Shown here in pieces: positions 3,003-61,500 of a stretch of DNA of 64,000 nt. This DNA comes from Naegleria gruberi. Taxonomy: Eukaryota. A program made the translations under genes and the position numbers. The stretch is from assembly GCA_000004985.1 (NCBI GenBank), contig GG738856.1. The stretch is one strand, 5' to 3'. Under the pieces are notes generated by a model, which was not told the origin of the DNA, did no database searches, and worked only from the letters and a program-made list of their open reading frames with translations. Every line of letters starts with the position of its first letter. The stretch's first letter is position 1.

Positions 3003-3120
3003 GGCTACGGCCATATCACGATGAATGCACCTCATCCCGTCCGATTTGAGAAGTTAAGCATCGTCGAGCCACATCAGTACTGAGGTTGGAGACAACTTGG
3101 GAACCTGTGGTGCTGTAGTC
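3003..3120 (+). rRNA. 5S ribosomal RNA gene
   Basis: GGCTACGGCCATATCACGATGAATGCACCTCATCCCGTCCGATTTGAGAAGTTAAGC...GGGAACCTGTGGTGCTGTAGTC matches eukaryotic 5S (GCCTACGGCCATACC...CCCGTCCGATCTG..GAAGTTAAGC...GGGAATACC..GTGCTGTAGGC). The 5' and 3' ends can pair as helix I, and a T6 Pol III terminator follows immediately. Confidence 0.85.
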
Positions 3121-3126
3121 TTTTTT
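3121..3126 (+). terminator. Pol III T-run terminator of the 5S gene
   Basis: TTTTTT directly after the 5S 3' end. Confidence 0.6.
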
Positions 3127-21986: not shown

Positions 21987-23096
21987 ATGAGTAAGCGAAA
22001 ATTAGTGTGTGATGACGATGAAGACGAAGAGATTGAAGAATTCAAGGCTTCGGTTGTGAATCAAATCATAGAAGTGAGTGATGAGGATAGTTTGGATAGT
22101 CCATTGAAGACTATTACCACTCCGATTAATCCTCCTAAAAAACCTAAAATTCAATCAACCTTGGTAGAAAACAAATCAACTCCAACAAGTAAGAATCATC
22201 AAGCAACAACAACAACTCCAAAGAAGGATCTTAAATTGTCAAAGAAGGGAGAATCTAGTAATAGTAAAACAGCATCAACACCAAAAACTCCAACTACTCT
22301 CAATGTAAATACAAACAAATCAAGCCTAGGAAGTACTAGTAACAATTCATCATCGAAAAAACAAACTCTCTCACCAGAAGAATCAAAGAGCAACAAGGCA
22401 ACTACTCTCGGAGATATACTGGGACCAGAAACTAAGAAGGAAAAGAAGAATGCAAAGAGTAGATTTTGGAATATTGCAAATTGCCAACCTGTAAATTATA
22501 AGGATATCGAAGATTGGGAGGATTTTGTGGATACTGCAGAGGAGAAATATCTCGGACCAAATAGAAATAATATTAATGTTTATATTAGAGAGGAGGAAGT
22601 GAATGTGATTTATCGGTGGATTGAATCTTTTAAATCTGCAAAATCTACATTGGCTGCTAGAGTTGCAAGAAATGTAAAGGAACGAAATGACAATAGTTTT
22701 GATGAAAGAGTTGAGGAAGAGAATTGGAAGAAATTGAATACTCTCACTGCTCGATTGAAAAATCTCTTAATGAATCACGAAAATTTAACAACAGAAGATT
22801 TGGGCAAAATGAAAGAATGTAGTCAAGTTCGAAAGAAACGTATCGAGGAAGAGAAGAGAGAAAATGAACAATCAGAGAGGGAACATCAGGCACTCAAGAA
22901 TCAATCAGATATTGCCCAGATTAAATACTTTGTTTTTAGAGATGGTCCAGTGCGTGGCCAAAAAGAATACTTTGAATGGAAATCCCTCATCAATATGAAG
23001 AATCTCTTCTCTGGAGCTGCAGCTGCTGCACAAAACAACCAACAACCCTCCTTTGAAGACTCTGATGATGAATTACTGAATGGTGATATATTCTAA
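21987..23096 (+). CDS. Hypothetical Ser/Lys/Thr-rich protein with a C-terminal coiled coil (369 aa)
   Basis: ATG ORF; acidic N-terminus 'CDDDEDEEIEEF'; low-complexity S/T/K tracts; charged heptad-like C-terminus. Confidence 0.4.
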   Translation: MSKRKLVCDDDEDEEIEEFKASVVNQIIEVSDEDSLDSPLKTITTPINPPKKPKIQSTLVENKSTPTSKNHQATTTTPKKDLKLSKKGESSNSKTASTPKTPTTLNVNTNKSSLGSTSNNSSSKKQTLSPEESKSNKATTLGDILGPETKKEKKNAKSRFWNIANCQPVNYKDIEDWEDFVDTAEEKYLGPNRNNINVYIREEEVNVIYRWIESFKSAKSTLAARVARNVKERNDNSFDERVEEENWKKLNTLTARLKNLLMNHENLTTEDLGKMKECSQVRKKRIEEEKRENEQSEREHQALKNQSDIAQIKYFVFRDGPVRGQKEYFEWKSLINMKNLFSGAAAAAQNNQQPSFEDSDDELLNGDIF

Positions 23097-24836: not shown

Positions 24837-24955
24837 GGCCACGTAGCTTAATTGGAAAAGCAGAACAAATGGTTTCAGTACTGAAACTTAACTGCAGTAA
24901 AAAATTCGCATTTCATTCGTAGAAAAAGATGTGGGTTCGAGCCCCACCGTGGTCG
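24837..24955 (+). tRNA. tRNA-like Pol III gene, 119 nt, carrying a roughly 46-nt insertion (probable intron-containing tRNA; anticodon not resolved)
   Basis: 7-bp acceptor GGCCACG/CGTGGTC; D-arm GCTT-AATTGGAA-AAGC (A-box-like TAGCTTAATTGG); T-arm GTGGG-TTCGAGC-CCCAC (B-box); discriminator then TTTT. Between D-arm and T-arm lie 87 nt instead of about 41, including a perfect 14-nt palindrome TTTCAGTACTGAAA. Confidence 0.5.
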
Positions 24956-25161
24956 ATTTTTTCATTCCACTTTTTCTATATTTCAAATTTCTTTTTCTTC
25001 CAATTTACGTTGTTCTAAATTGAGTTATCGAGAACGAGTTGTGATGTTCTTTTTTACTTTCTCCCTCCATACTTTGTACCATAAATGGTAGCTTGTAGCA
25101 GCAATTATGTGAATTAAAATTGTAATACTCTTGAAAAATAAATAAATTTTTTTGAGGAATA

Positions 25162-54467: not shown

Positions 54468-56282
54468 ATGCCACTCCCAGAAAAAGTTCGTAGATATACC
54501 TTCTACATTCTCGGAGGAGCCATCTGCCTAGCAATGACCAGTTTGATTTTGTATAACAATTATATTCTGATAGAACCACATTTACATACATTGTTCTGGA
54601 GTTTGTGTACGAGTATTCTACTGACCAAAGTAAAACAACCAATCAAGGCTTTCCTGGAGGGTTTCACCTCGGGGGTGAATATCAAACTTCGATTTGTCTT
54701 TCATTTGTTTTTCTGGGGGAATTACTTGTACTTCCTGGTGTACTTTTTGATGAGATGGTACACGTATAATGTTTCGGAGAGATTTGTGTTTACCATTTCG
54801 TTTATTATTGTTGGTGTGATTCTAATGTCGCCTTTTATATTGTCGGCTGATACACTGTCGACTATTATTGCAATGATATTGGCTTCATTTGTGTTGATTT
54901 CGATTACATTGTTGGTTGCTAGGACTGGTTATATGGAAAGTATGAAGGCAAGGTTTGTTTTTTCATTATTTCACTATTTTAATTATTGAATTTAATTGAC
55001 TTGTGCCTTAAATGATTAATTGTTCACATGTTTGTGAAATTCTATTTAATTAATGGTTAAATTATTGAAATATTAGCTCTGTAATTAAGGAATTTATTGA
55101 AAAGAATAAGGAAGTATTTCTAGAAAGTATGAATAACTATAAGGAAAACATAATCCCTCAAAATGTCACTGATATTAGTATCAAATCAGATAATGTAACG
55201 GTGTGGAAAACAGCTGAACGGTATTGTGACTTTATGCTGGGAGTAGCCAATAGTCAGTACGACTTTGTGAAAAATGTCACAAATCTAATTCATACCAAAA
55301 ATACGACAAATGACTCTATTGAGACGATATTGGGACCAAAGTTCTGTAAGAGTCAGGTTATGTACTTTCAAGATAATTTATACTCATTCATTCAATATGT
55401 ATTGAACTGGATGACTTCTAATATTAGTGTATTTGGCTACACACTTCAATCATTCTTCCAAACTCTGGTTGACTTGATTTCAAACTTTAAGGATTTTGTC
55501 TTTTCCTCCTTTATATTTATTTTATTTGTTTTCTACTTTGTTCAGAATGATGAATTCTTTATTGATAGCATGAAACGAATTTCACCACTCACTGAAGAAG
55601 AATCCACCATTCTCATTGACAGTATTGATACAAATATCATCAAAACTCTTTATTATTTATGCACGTTTGCCATTTGCAATTTTATAGTCACTACCTTGTC
55701 ATTCTATATTGTTGGCTTTGAAATTATTTTCATTTTTGGTATGTGTGTAATTATTTCAATAATTAATTACTTAAATTTTTATAATATTATTTCAATATTT
55801 TAAATTGAATTTAATGGAATAATTTGAAAATAGGTTTCTTGTCTGCATTCTTGTCAGTCATTCCAATTATTAGCAATTGGATTATTTGGATTCCTGCCAC
55901 AATCTTTGTCCTCTCGAGAGATGGTATCATTAGCTCCAATTGGATCATTATCTTTGCATCTCACATTTCACTCTACGTGATTGATAATATCATTTACACA
56001 AACTTTTTCAAGAAGCAACACCCAACCATGTTGGGAGTTTCCATTTTGTTAGGTGTATATGTTTTCAATCATTCAGGAATTATCAAGGGTCCTTTGTTTA
56101 TTACATTGGGAATGACATTTTTTGACATTGCCACAAAATATATCAATAAGGATAAGAAGGAAGATGGAGAAGATTCAGAAGGTGGAGGTTCTGGTTTGAG
56201 ACATCATCGTTCAAAGAGTTTCTTTGATTTGATTGCAGAAGATTGGAGCAGTATCAAATATGAAGATGATTCCAAAAAGTAA
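54468..56282 (+). CDS. AI-2E/TMEM245-like polytopic membrane protein encoded by three ORF blocks (54468-~54952, ~55090-55738, 55834-56282)
   Basis: All three blocks are highly hydrophobic multi-TM sequence. The second intron, 55739-55833, runs GTATGT...AAAATAG and joins in phase (G|GT = Gly). The first intron, about 54953-55089, runs GTTTGT...AATTAAG, but its exact donor is uncertain. The last block, 'FLSAFLSVIPIISNWIIWIPATIFVL...ITLGMTFFD', is the AI-2E family core. Confidence 0.5.
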
Positions 56283-57551: not shown

Positions 57552-57896
57552 TTACCACAACCATCCAAAGAGGGAGAAAGAAGAGGATGACGAGGATTTT
57601 GAACTTTCTCCATTCAACTTGTCCAACTTCTTATTATTTTGTTTGAGTTTGAAAGAGGCCTTTTCTACACCTTCTTCAATTTCTTCGAGGGTTGTTGTTT
57701 GATCATCCAATTCATTACCTATTGCTGTGGCAATATTCTTGACTCTTACCACGGAATTGTACAATCGATCGAGTTGTTCATCTTGACGATCTCTATGGGC
57801 TTTTTGAATTTTCAAATATTCTTCATAGTTAGAAGGAATGGTTTTTGAGGTAGTTGACAGATTGTTTTGGTTGGTAGAGGAAGATACTTTTGACAT
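57552..57896 (-). CDS. Small SNARE-motif protein (Bet1/Sft1-like Qc-SNARE)
   Basis: Heptad SNARE motif 'QLDRLYNSVVRVKNIATAIGNELDDQTTTLEEIEEGVEKASFKLKQNNKKL' with a short hydrophobic C-terminus. Confidence 0.4.
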   Translation of the reverse strand: MSKVSSSTNQNNLSTTSKTIPSNYEEYLKIQKAHRDRQDEQLDRLYNSVVRVKNIATAIGNELDDQTTTLEEIEEGVEKASFKLKQNNKKLDKLNGESSKSSSSSSFSLFGWLW

Positions 57897-58116
57897 TTTA
57901 TTTGGAATGTTTATTGGAATGAGTGAACCTCATTAAATTCAATTTTCTAATTTATTTTTAGCTTACAACGGTCAATGGAACTCATTAACAACGATTAACC
58001 ACAACAAATAAAGGATAAGGAATAGAGAAAATACTTCTTGAGAAAAATAATAATTAAAATCTTCACACATGATGTTAGATTAGAGAATTTTATTATTTTA
58101 ATAGTAAAAATGTGAA

Positions 58117-58480
58117 GGGGTCTTGGCGCAGTCGGTATTATTAATAGATTTTAGGGTAGGTAACGCTCTCAATCTACCTCAACGTAACTTTAAATATAAA
58201 CTTTAAATATATTTTTAGAAAGGGTGGTTTGCGCTCTCAACTACTGTTACTCTTTCAGGTACTGTTGCTATTTCAACTACTGTTGCTCTTTAATGTACTG
58301 TTGCTATACTTTACATTGAATTGAATTTATTGATCAATTATTTCAACTTTTGAAGATTTCTTACTATTAATAATGTTATTTTTAGAGGGTGGGTTGCGCT
58401 TTAAGTAGGTCAACGCTTTAAGGCGGTAGCGCGTAGGTCTCATAATCCTAAGGTCGTGAGTTCGATCCTCACAGACCCCA
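58117..58480 (+). tRNA. tRNA-Met(CAU, elongator-type) gene interrupted in the D-loop by a 291-bp insertion. The 5' part is 58117-58136, the 3' part 58428-58480.
   Basis: GGGGTCTTGGCGCAGTCGGT + AGCGCGTAGGTCTCATAATCCTAAGGTCGTGAGTTCGATCCTCACAGACCCCA reconstitutes a perfect 72-nt cloverleaf: acceptor GGGGTCT/AGACCCC, anticodon loop CTCATAA, T-loop TTCGATC. It is near-identical to eukaryotic elongator tRNA-Met and is followed by a T7 terminator. The two parts are separated by 58137-58427. Confidence 0.65.
58137..58427. other. 291-bp insertion inside the tRNA-Met D-loop (small non-autonomous element or non-canonical intron) with internal repeats
   Basis: Three copies of a roughly 30-bp motif TTTTAG(A)GGGT[AG]G[GT]T..CGCT[CT]T[CA]A at 58149, 58216 and 58378; four tandem roughly 18-bp units '(c/g)tactgttgct.t.t' at 58236-58312. 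'CGGT'/'GGT' is repeated at both junctions, possibly a target-site duplication. Confidence 0.45.
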
Positions 58481-58482
58481 AC

Positions 58483-58489
58483 TTTTTTT
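58483..58489 (+). terminator. Pol III T-run after the tRNA-Met 3' end
   Basis: TTTTTTT two nt after the discriminator base. Confidence 0.6.
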
Positions 58490-58572
58490 ACATTTTTTTT
58501 TATTATAATTGCCAACATTATTTCAACAAGCTAAAAATACTATTGTATTTCCATCTTTCCAAACTTAAAAAA

Positions 58573-61500
58573 ATGTCTAAACAACCTCAAGCCAAACAAG
58601 TCCTTGCCATTGTAGAAAAGATCGGAACAAAGATCGCCATTGCTAATGGAGGCAAGAGTTTGGAAAATCTTTTGGATAATCATCTCGTTCAATTGTTGAC
58701 CCTGTTGGGTTTTCCAGAGGCTTCTGTGAGGAATAAAGTTATTGAAGTTTTGAGTAATACTGTAAATAAGAGAGTCAAACTTGAATCAACAACAATTAAA
58801 TTGCCATTTGGTAAGATTTTGGAATTGTTTCAAAAGGAAATATCAAATTCTTTTATTAAGAATTTTGCTGTAATATATCTGGATATGGGATTCCCTCAAT
58901 TGTCACCAAGTGAAATGACTGAATATTTACCAACATTCTTCCAAGTACTTCCATTATTGAATTCCAATCCAAGCGACAATACATCAGTCTCTAACAAACA
59001 GCATCAAGCAATGTTTCTAAGATTTATTGTGGAAGCTGTTTGCAATCTAACCTATCCAGAAAAGGAGGAGGATGCATTGGAAAAGTTTCAGGAAATTAGA
59101 AATTGTGGAACATCTACATTGGACATTTTTATTGACTTTGCCATAGATTTCATGCTATATAAACCATCCCAGAAATCCGTCGGAAGTATGCAAACAATCT
59201 ATCCTAATGGCTTGAATGTTATCAAAATTAAGAGAATTTTGGGAAGTAGGGAAACTATCGAAGCTCAAGAACTTCAAAAACGAAAGATGAACCTTTTGGA
59301 ATTCTTTACAAAGAGTGCATGCTTTTCAGAGAATCAACAATTTCTCGTTCTAGTGATTGGTATGTCTCAACAAGAGTCAACTGATCAATTGGGATCAAGA
59401 TGTGAAGTTCTCATCAAGAAGCTTTCCCCAGACTATGAGGAACCAACCTTCATTCAAAAGCTCTTCTCCATATATTTGGGAGATTCTTCGAATGGTATTT
59501 CTCAAGCATCTCTTCCTCTCAAGTATAAGATTTTATCTTATTTATGCAAGTCTACACTGGCAGCCAATCACTTCCCTCAAACTCACCTCGTACTAATGGA
59601 TTCTCTTTTCAGTGAATATGCTGGAATGAAACTGAGAGGATTTGGTATGCAATTTTTCATGTGGGTCATTCAAGAAGGAACAGCCATTGAACAAGAATAC
59701 GGCTCAGAAGTATTCAGATCCATTTTATCAAACATTTCACGATTGTCTTCATCAACCAATTCTTCGACATTCTCCATGAATGAAATTGCCATGTTGAAAG
59801 AGAATATGTATACAGCTCTAGGTAGTTTTGCAAGAAAATTCCCTCACTTTGTTATGGACAGATTTGATTTAGTGGAGAGATATTTTGATGCTATTGCATT
59901 CGAAGATACAAGAATTCGTGTTGCCATCTTGCAAGGTCTCTCCAATTTAATTTATGCTTTCAAAGTTAATTTTATGAATAATTCTGAAGAGGAAACTAGA
60001 GCTGTTCGTGTTAGATTTGAAAACTTATTCTATAGTTGGGTTGTTGAGAGAAATACAGGCTTAAGTGATCTTTTGACTGGAAAATCTACTCATCAAAATA
60101 TGCAACTCTCTGCTAAATCAGCTGTAAACTCAGCTGTTTTGAGATGTGCCAACAGTTTATTCCCATTTGATAATGTAGTTTCTAGGTTTTTATGTTTATT
60201 CTGCACAGCTGGAGGATTTGGATCTGGTGATAATGTCTCCTTGAGCCACCAAATCAGAGAGGAATGTTTAAAAGGAACAGATTTGGATAAATTCACAAAG
60301 GCAAGACAATTGGATCACTGGGTTATTAACAAGAAGGGTTCAGATAGCAGTGAAAGCTCAGAAGAAAATGTGAACAAGCTTCCAATGTTTCTTACTGTCA
60401 AGTTTAGTTTCCCAACTTTTAAATCAGTTGTTGGATATATTTTTGATTTCATGACCAAGTTTGATCCAGCCATAACCAAGTCCAACACTATGCCTGCCCT
60501 GAACAAGATTGTTGCTCCTTCTGCACACTCAGCAATGATCAAGTTTTGCTTTGACTGTCTAGCAGAAGAATGTAAATTACAAAATGTTTCCATGTTGGAA
60601 AGAATTGAGAAAATGTCACAAGAAATGCTTGATGACAATGTCAAGGATGACTTTGAAAAATTCTTATACGTTATTGAAAAATCATTCGATGATAAGGTAT
60701 TGCTCTACTCTGGAACAACCTCCAATGCTACAGAATTATTGTTAGAAGCTTCTGAAACTTTGCTTAGACTCCTTCTTTCATTGAAAGACAAACCAGATTA
60801 TGTCAAGTATATTTCTAGAAGATTTAGCTTCTTGCTCGATGAAAAGGGTCCATTCCTTTTTGATTTAATGCTGGGAAGTTATAATGATATTGCCAGAGAG
60901 AAATTCTCTAAATTTATTGCCCTTCTCTTTATCTTTATTCGTCAAGATCCAGAAAAGTCATCCCAATGTGAAAAACTTATAGGAATTTGGAAAGATTACA
61001 TTGAAAAGCAATTCGGCAACGCTAACACGATGTCTGATCATAAGGGTGAAGTATGCGCTCTTGGAAGCATCTTGACTTTGGGTAGTATTATCAGTCTTAA
61101 TTATGCTTCTCAATCCTCATCATCAACAGAGCCATACTTGTTGGATGCATTCAAACTTATTTTAAGTATTTTGAGTAAGATTCCATTGACAAACTTGAGA
61201 GAACCTCTTCACCAAGCTTGTTATTTGGCTGTTGGTGAAATGGGATATAGTGGAGTTTTGCAAGACTACTTCGCAAATTATTTCACCCCAACCATTGATG
61301 AATTACAATTTGAGGTTAGTGCAACTCTTCCATCGAAGGAAATTAACTCTATGGATGATTTGGTGACCTTATTTGTAAAACTTGTTGAAAGATATGCATC
61401 ATCCACTCGTCAAAAGAACTCATCAACAACTAATGAAAAGATTTTAGAAAGATTGATTATAACTGTAGGAAAAGTTTGTGTTGGATCTAATAAGAATAAT

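Follow-up and report, generated by a model that had tools for sequence, protein, structure and literature searches.

We describe an elongator tRNA-Met(CAU) gene of the protist Naegleria gruberi that is interrupted in its D-loop by 291 nt of AT-rich, internally repetitive DNA. The gene lies on the plus strand of a 64,000-nucleotide stretch of contig GG738856.1 (GenBank assembly GCA_000004985.1), which was analysed at its full length and is hereafter called the window; all coordinates of the locus refer to it. The analysis confirmed that the two tRNA pieces on either side of the insert make up a single interrupted gene, and we lean towards reading this gene as a young, spare copy that was inactivated by the insertion.

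Two tRNA pieces rejoin into one elongator tRNA-Met(CAU) gene

The gene and its signals are laid out as follows.

58117-58136 (+): 5' piece of tRNA-Met(CAU), 20 nt, GGGGTCTTGGCGCAGTCGGT; acceptor 5' strand, U8, G9, D-stem 5' strand and D-loop nt 14-20
58124-58135 (+): A box, TGGCGCAGTCGG, inside the 5' piece
58137-58427 (+): insert, 291 nt, between tRNA positions 20 and 21
58428-58480 (+): 3' piece of tRNA-Met(CAU), 53 nt; A21, D-stem 3' strand, anticodon arm, variable loop, T arm, acceptor 3' strand and discriminator A
58439-58445 (+): anticodon loop CTCATAA, within the 3' piece
58458-58470 (+): B box, in the T arm of the 3' piece
58483-58489 (T7) and 58493-58501 (T9) (+): T runs resembling an RNA polymerase III (Pol III) terminator, beginning 3 nt past the discriminator base

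Left uncut, the sequence is not called as a tRNA by ARAGORN, and Rfam's model for tRNA detects the 3' piece alone (24.9 bits). With the insert taken out, ARAGORN returns a 73-nt tRNA-Met(cat) with a perfect cloverleaf, and the joining of 58117-58136 to 58428-58480 neither loses nor gains a base. The joined 73-mer has what is expected of an elongator tRNA-Met(CAU), namely the cloverleaf, the CAU anticodon, the nucleotides that are universal among tRNAs (U8, A14, G18G19, U33 and a GTTCRA T loop) and the elongator marks G1:C72 and T54, which were read off the sequence. An unbroken copy of the D arm that the join restores, TGGCGCAGTCGGTAGCGCG, is present in 9 of the 124 full-length environmental tRNA-Met genes described below. 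In a usual tRNA gene, the A and B boxes lie about 30-60 nt apart and a T-run terminator follows downstream; here, the distance between the boxes is 31 nt once the pieces are joined, compared to 322 nt in the native sequence. All 73 exon bases, both promoter boxes and the T7 terminator are undamaged. The CGGT that is repeated at the two junctions permits five splice registers, that is, 20/21 plus four others back to 16/17.

An earlier note on this DNA, made from the letters alone, had proposed a tRNA-Met(CAU) gene split into 20 + 53 nt around 291 bp and followed by a Pol III terminator. Its coordinates proved exact, the cloverleaf predicted by ARAGORN and a 72/73 match to an environmental contig bear out the split gene, and the terminator is the T7 run at 58483-58489. 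Standard tRNA finders overlook this interrupted gene, which is of relevance mainly to annotation.

An uninterrupted form of the gene exists in the environment

A 63-aa open reading frame (ORF) with an ATG start (58327-58518, minus strand) lies antisense to the tRNA 3' piece and extends into the insert; it is absent from a collection of 15 billion proteins and is almost certainly spurious. Searching this ORF against 1.84 billion protein representatives led, by way of P0012, to L121 (ENA ERZ929261), a metagenome contig of 2041 nt with a G+C content of 34.5% (34.3% in the window). The best match of the same search, P0004, was an unrelated 700-aa tandem-repeat translation and was discarded. At positions 25-97 of L121 (in the minus-strand orientation of the locus) there is a continuous tRNA-Met(CAU) with the same acceptor stem, which is identical to the joined gene at 72 of 73 positions, the sole difference being a T33 to C change by which C33 replaces the near-universal U33. 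The likeness continues over about 20 bases upstream of the gene (window 58098-58116 versus L121 98-117; TTAATAGTAAAAATGTG / TTAATAATAGATAATGTG; blastn E = 4e-7 including the exon), and these shared bases could represent a conserved upstream promoter element or reflect recent common ancestry of the copies. L121 also carries an upstream ORF of 609 aa without Pfam domains.

Scanning the metagenome collection with the anticodon and T arms yielded 125 tRNA-Met genes of other eukaryotes, of which the 124 full-length ones, with their upstream part present, are all continuous; a metagenome scan with the 52-nt 3' exon gave no match. The 5' 20-mer had four matches in bacterial genomes, which lie within GC-rich coding sequence and were dismissed as chance. 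An uninterrupted form of the interrupted tRNA-Met gene is thus present in a compositionally similar organism.

A repeat shared by both junctions points to an insertion event

The two ends of the insert share a short direct repeat.

58130-58136 (+): left junction direct repeat, AGTCGGT; its final CGGT (58133-58136) is perfect
58421-58427 (+): right junction direct repeat, AGGCGGT, identical to the left copy at 6 of 7 positions; CGGT at 58424-58427

As expected of a target-site duplication, CGGT agrees at 4 of 4 positions and AGTCGGT / AGGCGGT at 6 of 7; a match to CGGT at one fixed site has a chance probability of about 0.002. From the bases at the junctions, the repeat points to an insertion event.

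The insert is repetitive, non-coding and without a recognizable class

Several families of repeats make up the insert.

58137-58184 (+): repeat unit 1, with the TATTAATA core, TTTTAG and GGGTAGGTAACGCTCTCAA...
58137-58147 (+): left arm of an inverted repeat, ATTATTAATAG; the first 11 nt of the insert and of unit 1
58186-58211 (+): perfect tandem duplication, 2 x 13 nt, AACTTTAAATATA
58212-58246 (+): repeat unit 2, TTTTTAGAAAGGGTGGTTTGCGCTCTCAACTACTG; continues into the 18-nt array
58229-58305 (+): tandem array, period 18, 4.3 copies, 77% matches, consensus TTGCTCTTTCAAGTACTG
58362-58414 (+): repeat unit 3, ACTATTAATAATGTTATTTTTAGAGGGTGGGTTGCGCTTTAAGTAGGTCAACG; holds the right arm of the inverted repeat
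58364-58374 (+): right arm of the inverted repeat, CTATTAATAAT; 53 nt inward of the right junction
58397-58410 and 58414-58427 (+): short tandem duplication, CGCTTTAAGTAGGT and CGCTTTAAGGCGGT; the second copy stops at the 3' junction
58149-58152 (T4), 58212-58216 (T5), 58348-58351 (T4) and 58379-58383 (T5) (+): T runs of the insert, sense strand

With 69% A+T (41% T), the insert is non-coding; its longest ORFs measure 27-31 aa, and an exact look-up of the ORFs across it in the protein collection gave no match. Three units of 35-50 nt each consist of the TATTAATA core followed by TTTTAG, GGGTrG, T..CGCT and YTMA (mean column identity of 69%), and the motif AGGGTrG..T..CGCT within them occurs three times (at 58153, 58221 and 58386), the copies being 70-80% alike. 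The three repeat motifs, the 18-bp array and the CGGT at both junctions that the earlier note had listed were all recovered, the array with 4.3 copies. Elsewhere in the window this unit motif does not occur (0 occurrences expected by chance), and blastn of the insert against the window gave no second copy of any part. No copies were found in the metagenome, plasmid, phage and viral collections either, the N. gruberi genome being outside these collections.

The 11 nt with which the insert opens, ATTATTAATAG, are matched by an exact reverse complement at 58364-58374. Just 13 of 20000 shuffles scored as well, which is explained in part by the palindromic core TATTAATA being a component of the direct repeat. 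The insert counts four runs of at least four T, where the window background is 2.7 in 291 nt; Pol III stop signals are therefore not avoided there. The insert folds no better than its shuffles (z = -0.99 for the plus strand and -0.39 for the minus strand), and a structured RNA was rejected on these values. At E <= 10, no Rfam family was found in the insert except for snoR17, which at 19.5 bits is far below its gathering score of 60; there is also no TGATGA C box and no CTGA D box, and a ribozyme, a small nucleolar RNA (snoRNA) or another known RNA was therefore discarded. The idea that the repeat units are decayed copies of the tRNA 5' piece with its upstream flank was likewise dropped, given that local alignments stayed within background for the 5' exon (p = 0.90), the window flank (p = 0.36-0.40) and the L121 flank (p = 0.09-0.10).

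Common classes of mobile elements were compared with the insert as well. Inspection revealed no A|T target, no TG..CA ends and no poly(A), which sets aside a Helitron, a long terminal repeat (LTR) element and a short interspersed nuclear element (SINE), respectively. For a tRNA-derived SINE in particular, poly(A) is missing at either end and the resemblance between insert and exons does not exceed background. The pair of terminal inverted repeats that a miniature inverted-repeat transposable element (MITE) would carry was not found, the left arm (58137-58147) being terminal and the right arm (58364-58374) lying 53 nt inside. Hence, of the earlier suggestion that a mobile element had entered the gene, the insertion event stood, by the junction repeat (4/4 or 6/7) and the join that loses and gains no base, whereas a MITE or SINE was not shown, given the internal right arm, the lack of poly(A) and the lack of a second copy in the window.

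The junctions lack the motif that defines the ectopic tRNA introns of archaea and Cyanidioschyzon merolae

The ectopic tRNA introns of archaea and of the red alga Cyanidioschyzon merolae are defined by the motif termed bulge-helix-bulge (BHB), or relaxed forms of it, at their junctions (PMC3728597). We required splice sites in 3-nt bulges flanking a 4-bp helix, either in the full form (hBHBh') or in one of the relaxed forms (hBH or HBh'), and scanned the five splice registers, allowing bulges to span 0-4 nt and the central helix 3-6 bp. At none of the five registers was a BHB, hBH or HBh' found. The best junction fold is a GTCG/CGGT helix by a 1x1 A14.A21 loop, which has no 3-nt bulges and is not a BHB. 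A strict hBHBh' scan of the whole precursor gave 61 matches, compared to 44 +/- 8 in shuffles, none of which excises the insert. The locus therefore fails the defining test of the C. merolae/archaeal intron type.

The length of the insert is unusual, too. Canonical eukaryotic tRNA introns measure 6-133 nt and those of the Guillardia theta nucleomorph 3-24 nt (PMC4090602), so that, at 291 nt, the insert exceeds the longest tRNA intron reported from eukaryotes more than twofold and is 12 times the nucleomorph maximum. Where one of many synonymous eukaryotic tRNA genes has an insertion in the D or T arm, it is generally regarded as a pseudogene (PMC4090602). The earlier note had offered an intron of the Cyanidioschyzon or nucleomorph kind as its second reading, with a fold of the junctions for a BHB as the check; that fold was run and came out empty at all five registers, and together with a length far beyond the reported ranges (PMC4090602) this speaks against such an intron. 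A spliceosomal intron was rejected on inspection, as no GT...AG pair gives back the tRNA. No mention of ectopic tRNA introns in Naegleria, or of elements that target tRNA genes there, was found in the searchable literature, which does not include the N. gruberi genome paper.

A second tRNA-like gene may also be interrupted outside the canonical position

Elsewhere in the window, at 24837-24955 (+), there is a second tRNA-like gene (Rfam tRNA, 40.3 bits) with a T6 terminator at 24957. Its acceptor, D and T arms are normal, and 64 nt stand where an anticodon arm of 17 nt is expected. The sole hairpin resembling an anticodon arm is ATTTC-ATTCGTA-GAAAA (24910-24926), and, taken at face value, this sequence would make the gene a tRNA-Arg(UCG) with a 47-nt insertion at about position 26/27, an unusual A32 and U37, and no BHB. 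Since its anticodon loop (AUUCGUA) is atypical, the gene may equally be a relic; the choice is between one more disrupted remnant and a second interruption of the ectopic kind. Its acceptor stem presumably resembles that of animal tRNA-Arg(YCG). The 47-nt insert contains a perfect 14-nt palindrome, TTTCAGTACTGAAA (24873-24886), and an 8-nt palindrome, ACTGCAGT (24891-24898). A common origin of the Met and Arg-like inserts via TTTCAG(G)TACTG (58253-58264, within the 18-nt array) was considered and rejected (p = 0.24).

Genomic setting

The interrupted tRNA-Met gene occupies a spacer of 676 bp. A small minus-strand ORF (57552-57896) borders it on one side; on the other, the ECM29 gene (ECM29_N match, E = 4e-112) begins at 58573 on the plus strand and stays open as far as the end of the window. 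With both neighbouring genes as protein queries, no Naegleria orthologue besides the gene itself was found. The small ORF and another at 21987-23096 are each 100% identical to an N. gruberi predicted protein from a 602-kb scaffold. The three Pol III genes of the window terminate in T6-T7, with T6 at the 5S rRNA gene and at the second tRNA-like gene. The former is a single dispersed 5S rRNA gene (3003-3121, plus strand; 105 bits) amid protein-coding genes, with its T6 at the end. Two adjacent ORFs (55129-55803 and 55824-56282, plus strand) match the AI-2E transporter profile at positions 109-231 and 224-323, respectively, and are probably one gene split by a short intron or a frameshift.

Discussion

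On balance, we consider the interrupted tRNA-Met gene somewhat likely to be a young, insertion-inactivated spare copy. Its ancestor would have been an ordinary Pol III-transcribed elongator tRNA-Met(CAU) gene of N. gruberi, into whose D-loop a single insertion event would have placed about 287-291 bp of AT-rich, internally repetitive DNA between nt 20 and 21, duplicating four, perhaps seven, target bases. Mature tRNA output would thereby have been lost, because the A and B boxes now lie 322 nt apart for TFIIIC, four T4-T5 tracts precede the 3' piece and the junctions carry no mark for the splicing endonuclease; for these reasons, the inactivation that the earlier note had raised is plausible. 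Flawless exons next to diverged insert repeats imply either a recent insertion of DNA whose repeats had diverged beforehand or selection on the exons. We infer the former, as the repeats of the insert agree with one another at only 70-80% whereas none of the 73 exon bases has departed from those of a working tRNA, which suggests that the DNA arrived ready-made and not long ago. Indeed, at 10-12% neutral change, 73 bases would stay untouched with a probability of only about 1e-4 to 5e-4, which excludes an old dead copy. The inserted DNA may derive from a non-autonomous transposon, perhaps of a kind aimed at small-RNA genes, or from filler DNA taken up in break repair. As tRNAscan-SE reports 924 tRNA genes (tDNAs) in N. 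gruberi (PMC2888827), the loss of one copy would be affordable. The same number, together with the near-identical uninterrupted gene in a similar organism, makes it unlikely that this is the only such copy, the condition under which the earlier note had held that the gene must still be functional.

Several observations weigh against this inactivated-copy reading. A mobile origin is unproven, with no second copy of the insert in the window or in collections that do not include the N. gruberi genome. The insert has neither inverted repeats at both termini nor poly(A), and no standard transposon class fits. The exons, the promoter boxes and the strong terminator are as flawless as those of a functional gene would be. 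Moreover, 58364-58374 can pair without mismatch with the initial 11 nt of the insert and, in RNA, three further G.U pairs reach into the exon; this helix would draw the junctions together, as the stems of introns do. The T4-T5 runs may be leaky terminators where genes end in T6-T7, and the second tRNA-like gene (24837-24955), also interrupted away from 37/38, hints that such genes may be commoner here than rare accidents would be.

These points bear chiefly on the alternative that the gene is functional and holds a very long ectopic intron at 20/21, whereby the 364-nt unit would be transcribed, a helix of 11-14 bp (extending to 58364-58377) would join the junctions and removal would proceed without a BHB. 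We regard such an intron as unlikely. It would account for the flawless exons, boxes and terminator, and also for the divergence of the insert repeats alongside intact exons, given that divergence in situ would require selection on the exons. The junction-anchored helix exists, 20/21 is a known ectopic position in archaea (PMC4090602), and, by the passage devoted to them in PMC3728597, most ectopic introns of the G. theta nucleomorph are spliced despite lacking a BHB; the non-37/38 insertion in the second tRNA-like gene would add company. However, BHB, hBH and HBh' are all absent, 291 nt contrasts with 133 nt for the longest eukaryotic tRNA intron and is 12x the longest ectopic intron of G. 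theta (PMC4090602), and the transcript would have to pass four T4-T5 runs from a promoter whose boxes are 322 nt apart. The insert also gives no structural signal, endonuclease-cleaved introns do not feature a direct repeat at their junctions, no Naegleria precedent was found in the searchable literature, and tDNAs are plentiful. The broader proposal that nuclear tRNA genes of N. gruberi can carry long D-arm introns removed without a BHB, of which the 291 nt at 20/21 would be one and the 47 nt around 26/27 of the Arg-like gene possibly another, strikes us as a shade less likely again.

The comparison with described introns cuts both ways. Like the ectopic introns of C. merolae and archaea (Soma 2013, PMC3728597; PMC4090602), the Naegleria insert interrupts a tRNA away from 37/38, at the archaeal position 20/21, and its exons rejoin canonically. 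Unlike them, it has no BHB or relaxed form, is several-fold longer, contains internal T runs and is flanked by a direct repeat. The nucleomorph introns of G. theta (Kawach 2005), insofar as they are summarised in PMC4090602 and PMC3728597, likewise interrupt D and T arms and are mostly incapable of forming a BHB, yet are removed; by the same summaries, they differ in measuring 3-24 nt and in belonging to the single-copy genes of a reduced genome, which must work. A closer likeness to a dead copy is offered by those eukaryotic tRNA pseudogenes whose D or T arm contains an insertion (Yoshihisa 2014, PMC4090602), which are members of multi-copy families with extra D-arm DNA and an otherwise tRNA-like remainder, although those insertions are described as short whereas that of Naegleria is 291 nt long, repetitive and flanked by a direct repeat, with exons otherwise undamaged.

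As to what was inserted, MITEs share with the insert a small size (<600 bp), a high A+T content, a lack of coding sequence and a short direct repeat at the junctions; unlike them, the insert has no inverted repeats at both termini, and where MITEs form families of copies, no second copy of it was seen in the 64-kb window. Dada elements insert at fixed sites in tRNA, U1 and U6 genes, including tRNA genes of the protist Perkinsus marinus, where the duplication falls within the A box (Kojima and Jurka 2013, PMC3706591). They produce duplications of 6-7 bp, have short sub-terminal but no terminal inverted repeats and occur as internally deleted derivatives (PMC3706591). A Dada-like non-autonomous DNA transposon that recognises the A box and D-loop of tRNA genes, with a duplication of 6-7 bp, would be a special case of the insertion that we favour; we rate it as a long shot. 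As in Dada (PMC3706591), which is known from a protist and animals, the insertion struck a multi-copy Pol III gene at or near the A box and has no inverted repeats at its two ends; the junction repeat, in the A box and D-loop, spans 7 bp with one mismatch, compared to 6-7 bp for Dada. Yet no second copy was seen in the 64-kb window, the perfect duplication covers only 4 bases, and the inverted repeat, which reaches the left end of the insert, stops 53 nt short of the right end, whereas Dada is described with a symmetrical sub-terminal pattern. The literature searched contains no report of Dada in Heterolobosea.

Very unlikely, in our estimation, is growth in place, in which a small duplication or insertion in the D-loop was expanded by replication slippage into 291 nt of minisatellite-like DNA. 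The nested tandem and dispersed repeats (13 nt x 2, 18 nt x 4.3, the duplication ending at the 3' junction and the three units of 35-50 nt) are of the kind that slippage would leave, and the end of the last unit, AGGCGGT, resembles the exon's AGTCGGT; however, the similarity of the insert to the 5' exon and the upstream flank is within background, and slow growth takes time in which dead exons decay. Owing to this need for time, the scenario merges into that of a functional intron unless growth was very fast. Finally, a split tRNA whose pieces are transcribed apart and joined in trans, as in Nanoarchaeum, is highly improbable. Both pieces are intact and a T4 run lies 13 nt past the 5' piece; nevertheless, no complementary leader and trailer form a BHB, the 3' piece lacks an A box, and split tRNAs are not known from eukaryotic nuclei.

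If the ectopic-intron alternative were true, it would reveal that tRNA splicing in a eukaryote outside the red algae and nucleomorphs can follow a route bound neither by the 37/38 ruler nor by the BHB rule. Ectopic tRNA introns would then reach a free-living heterotroph far from red algae, with an intron longer than any known and devoid of the customary splice motif, and the choice of splice sites by eukaryotic endonucleases would become testable in a culturable organism. If, as we favour, the gene is instead a young copy inactivated by insertion, it would represent a clean, datable knock-out of a tRNA gene in a little-studied protist, and it would provide a lead to the element or repair process responsible, possibly a transposon that targets small-RNA genes in Heterolobosea.

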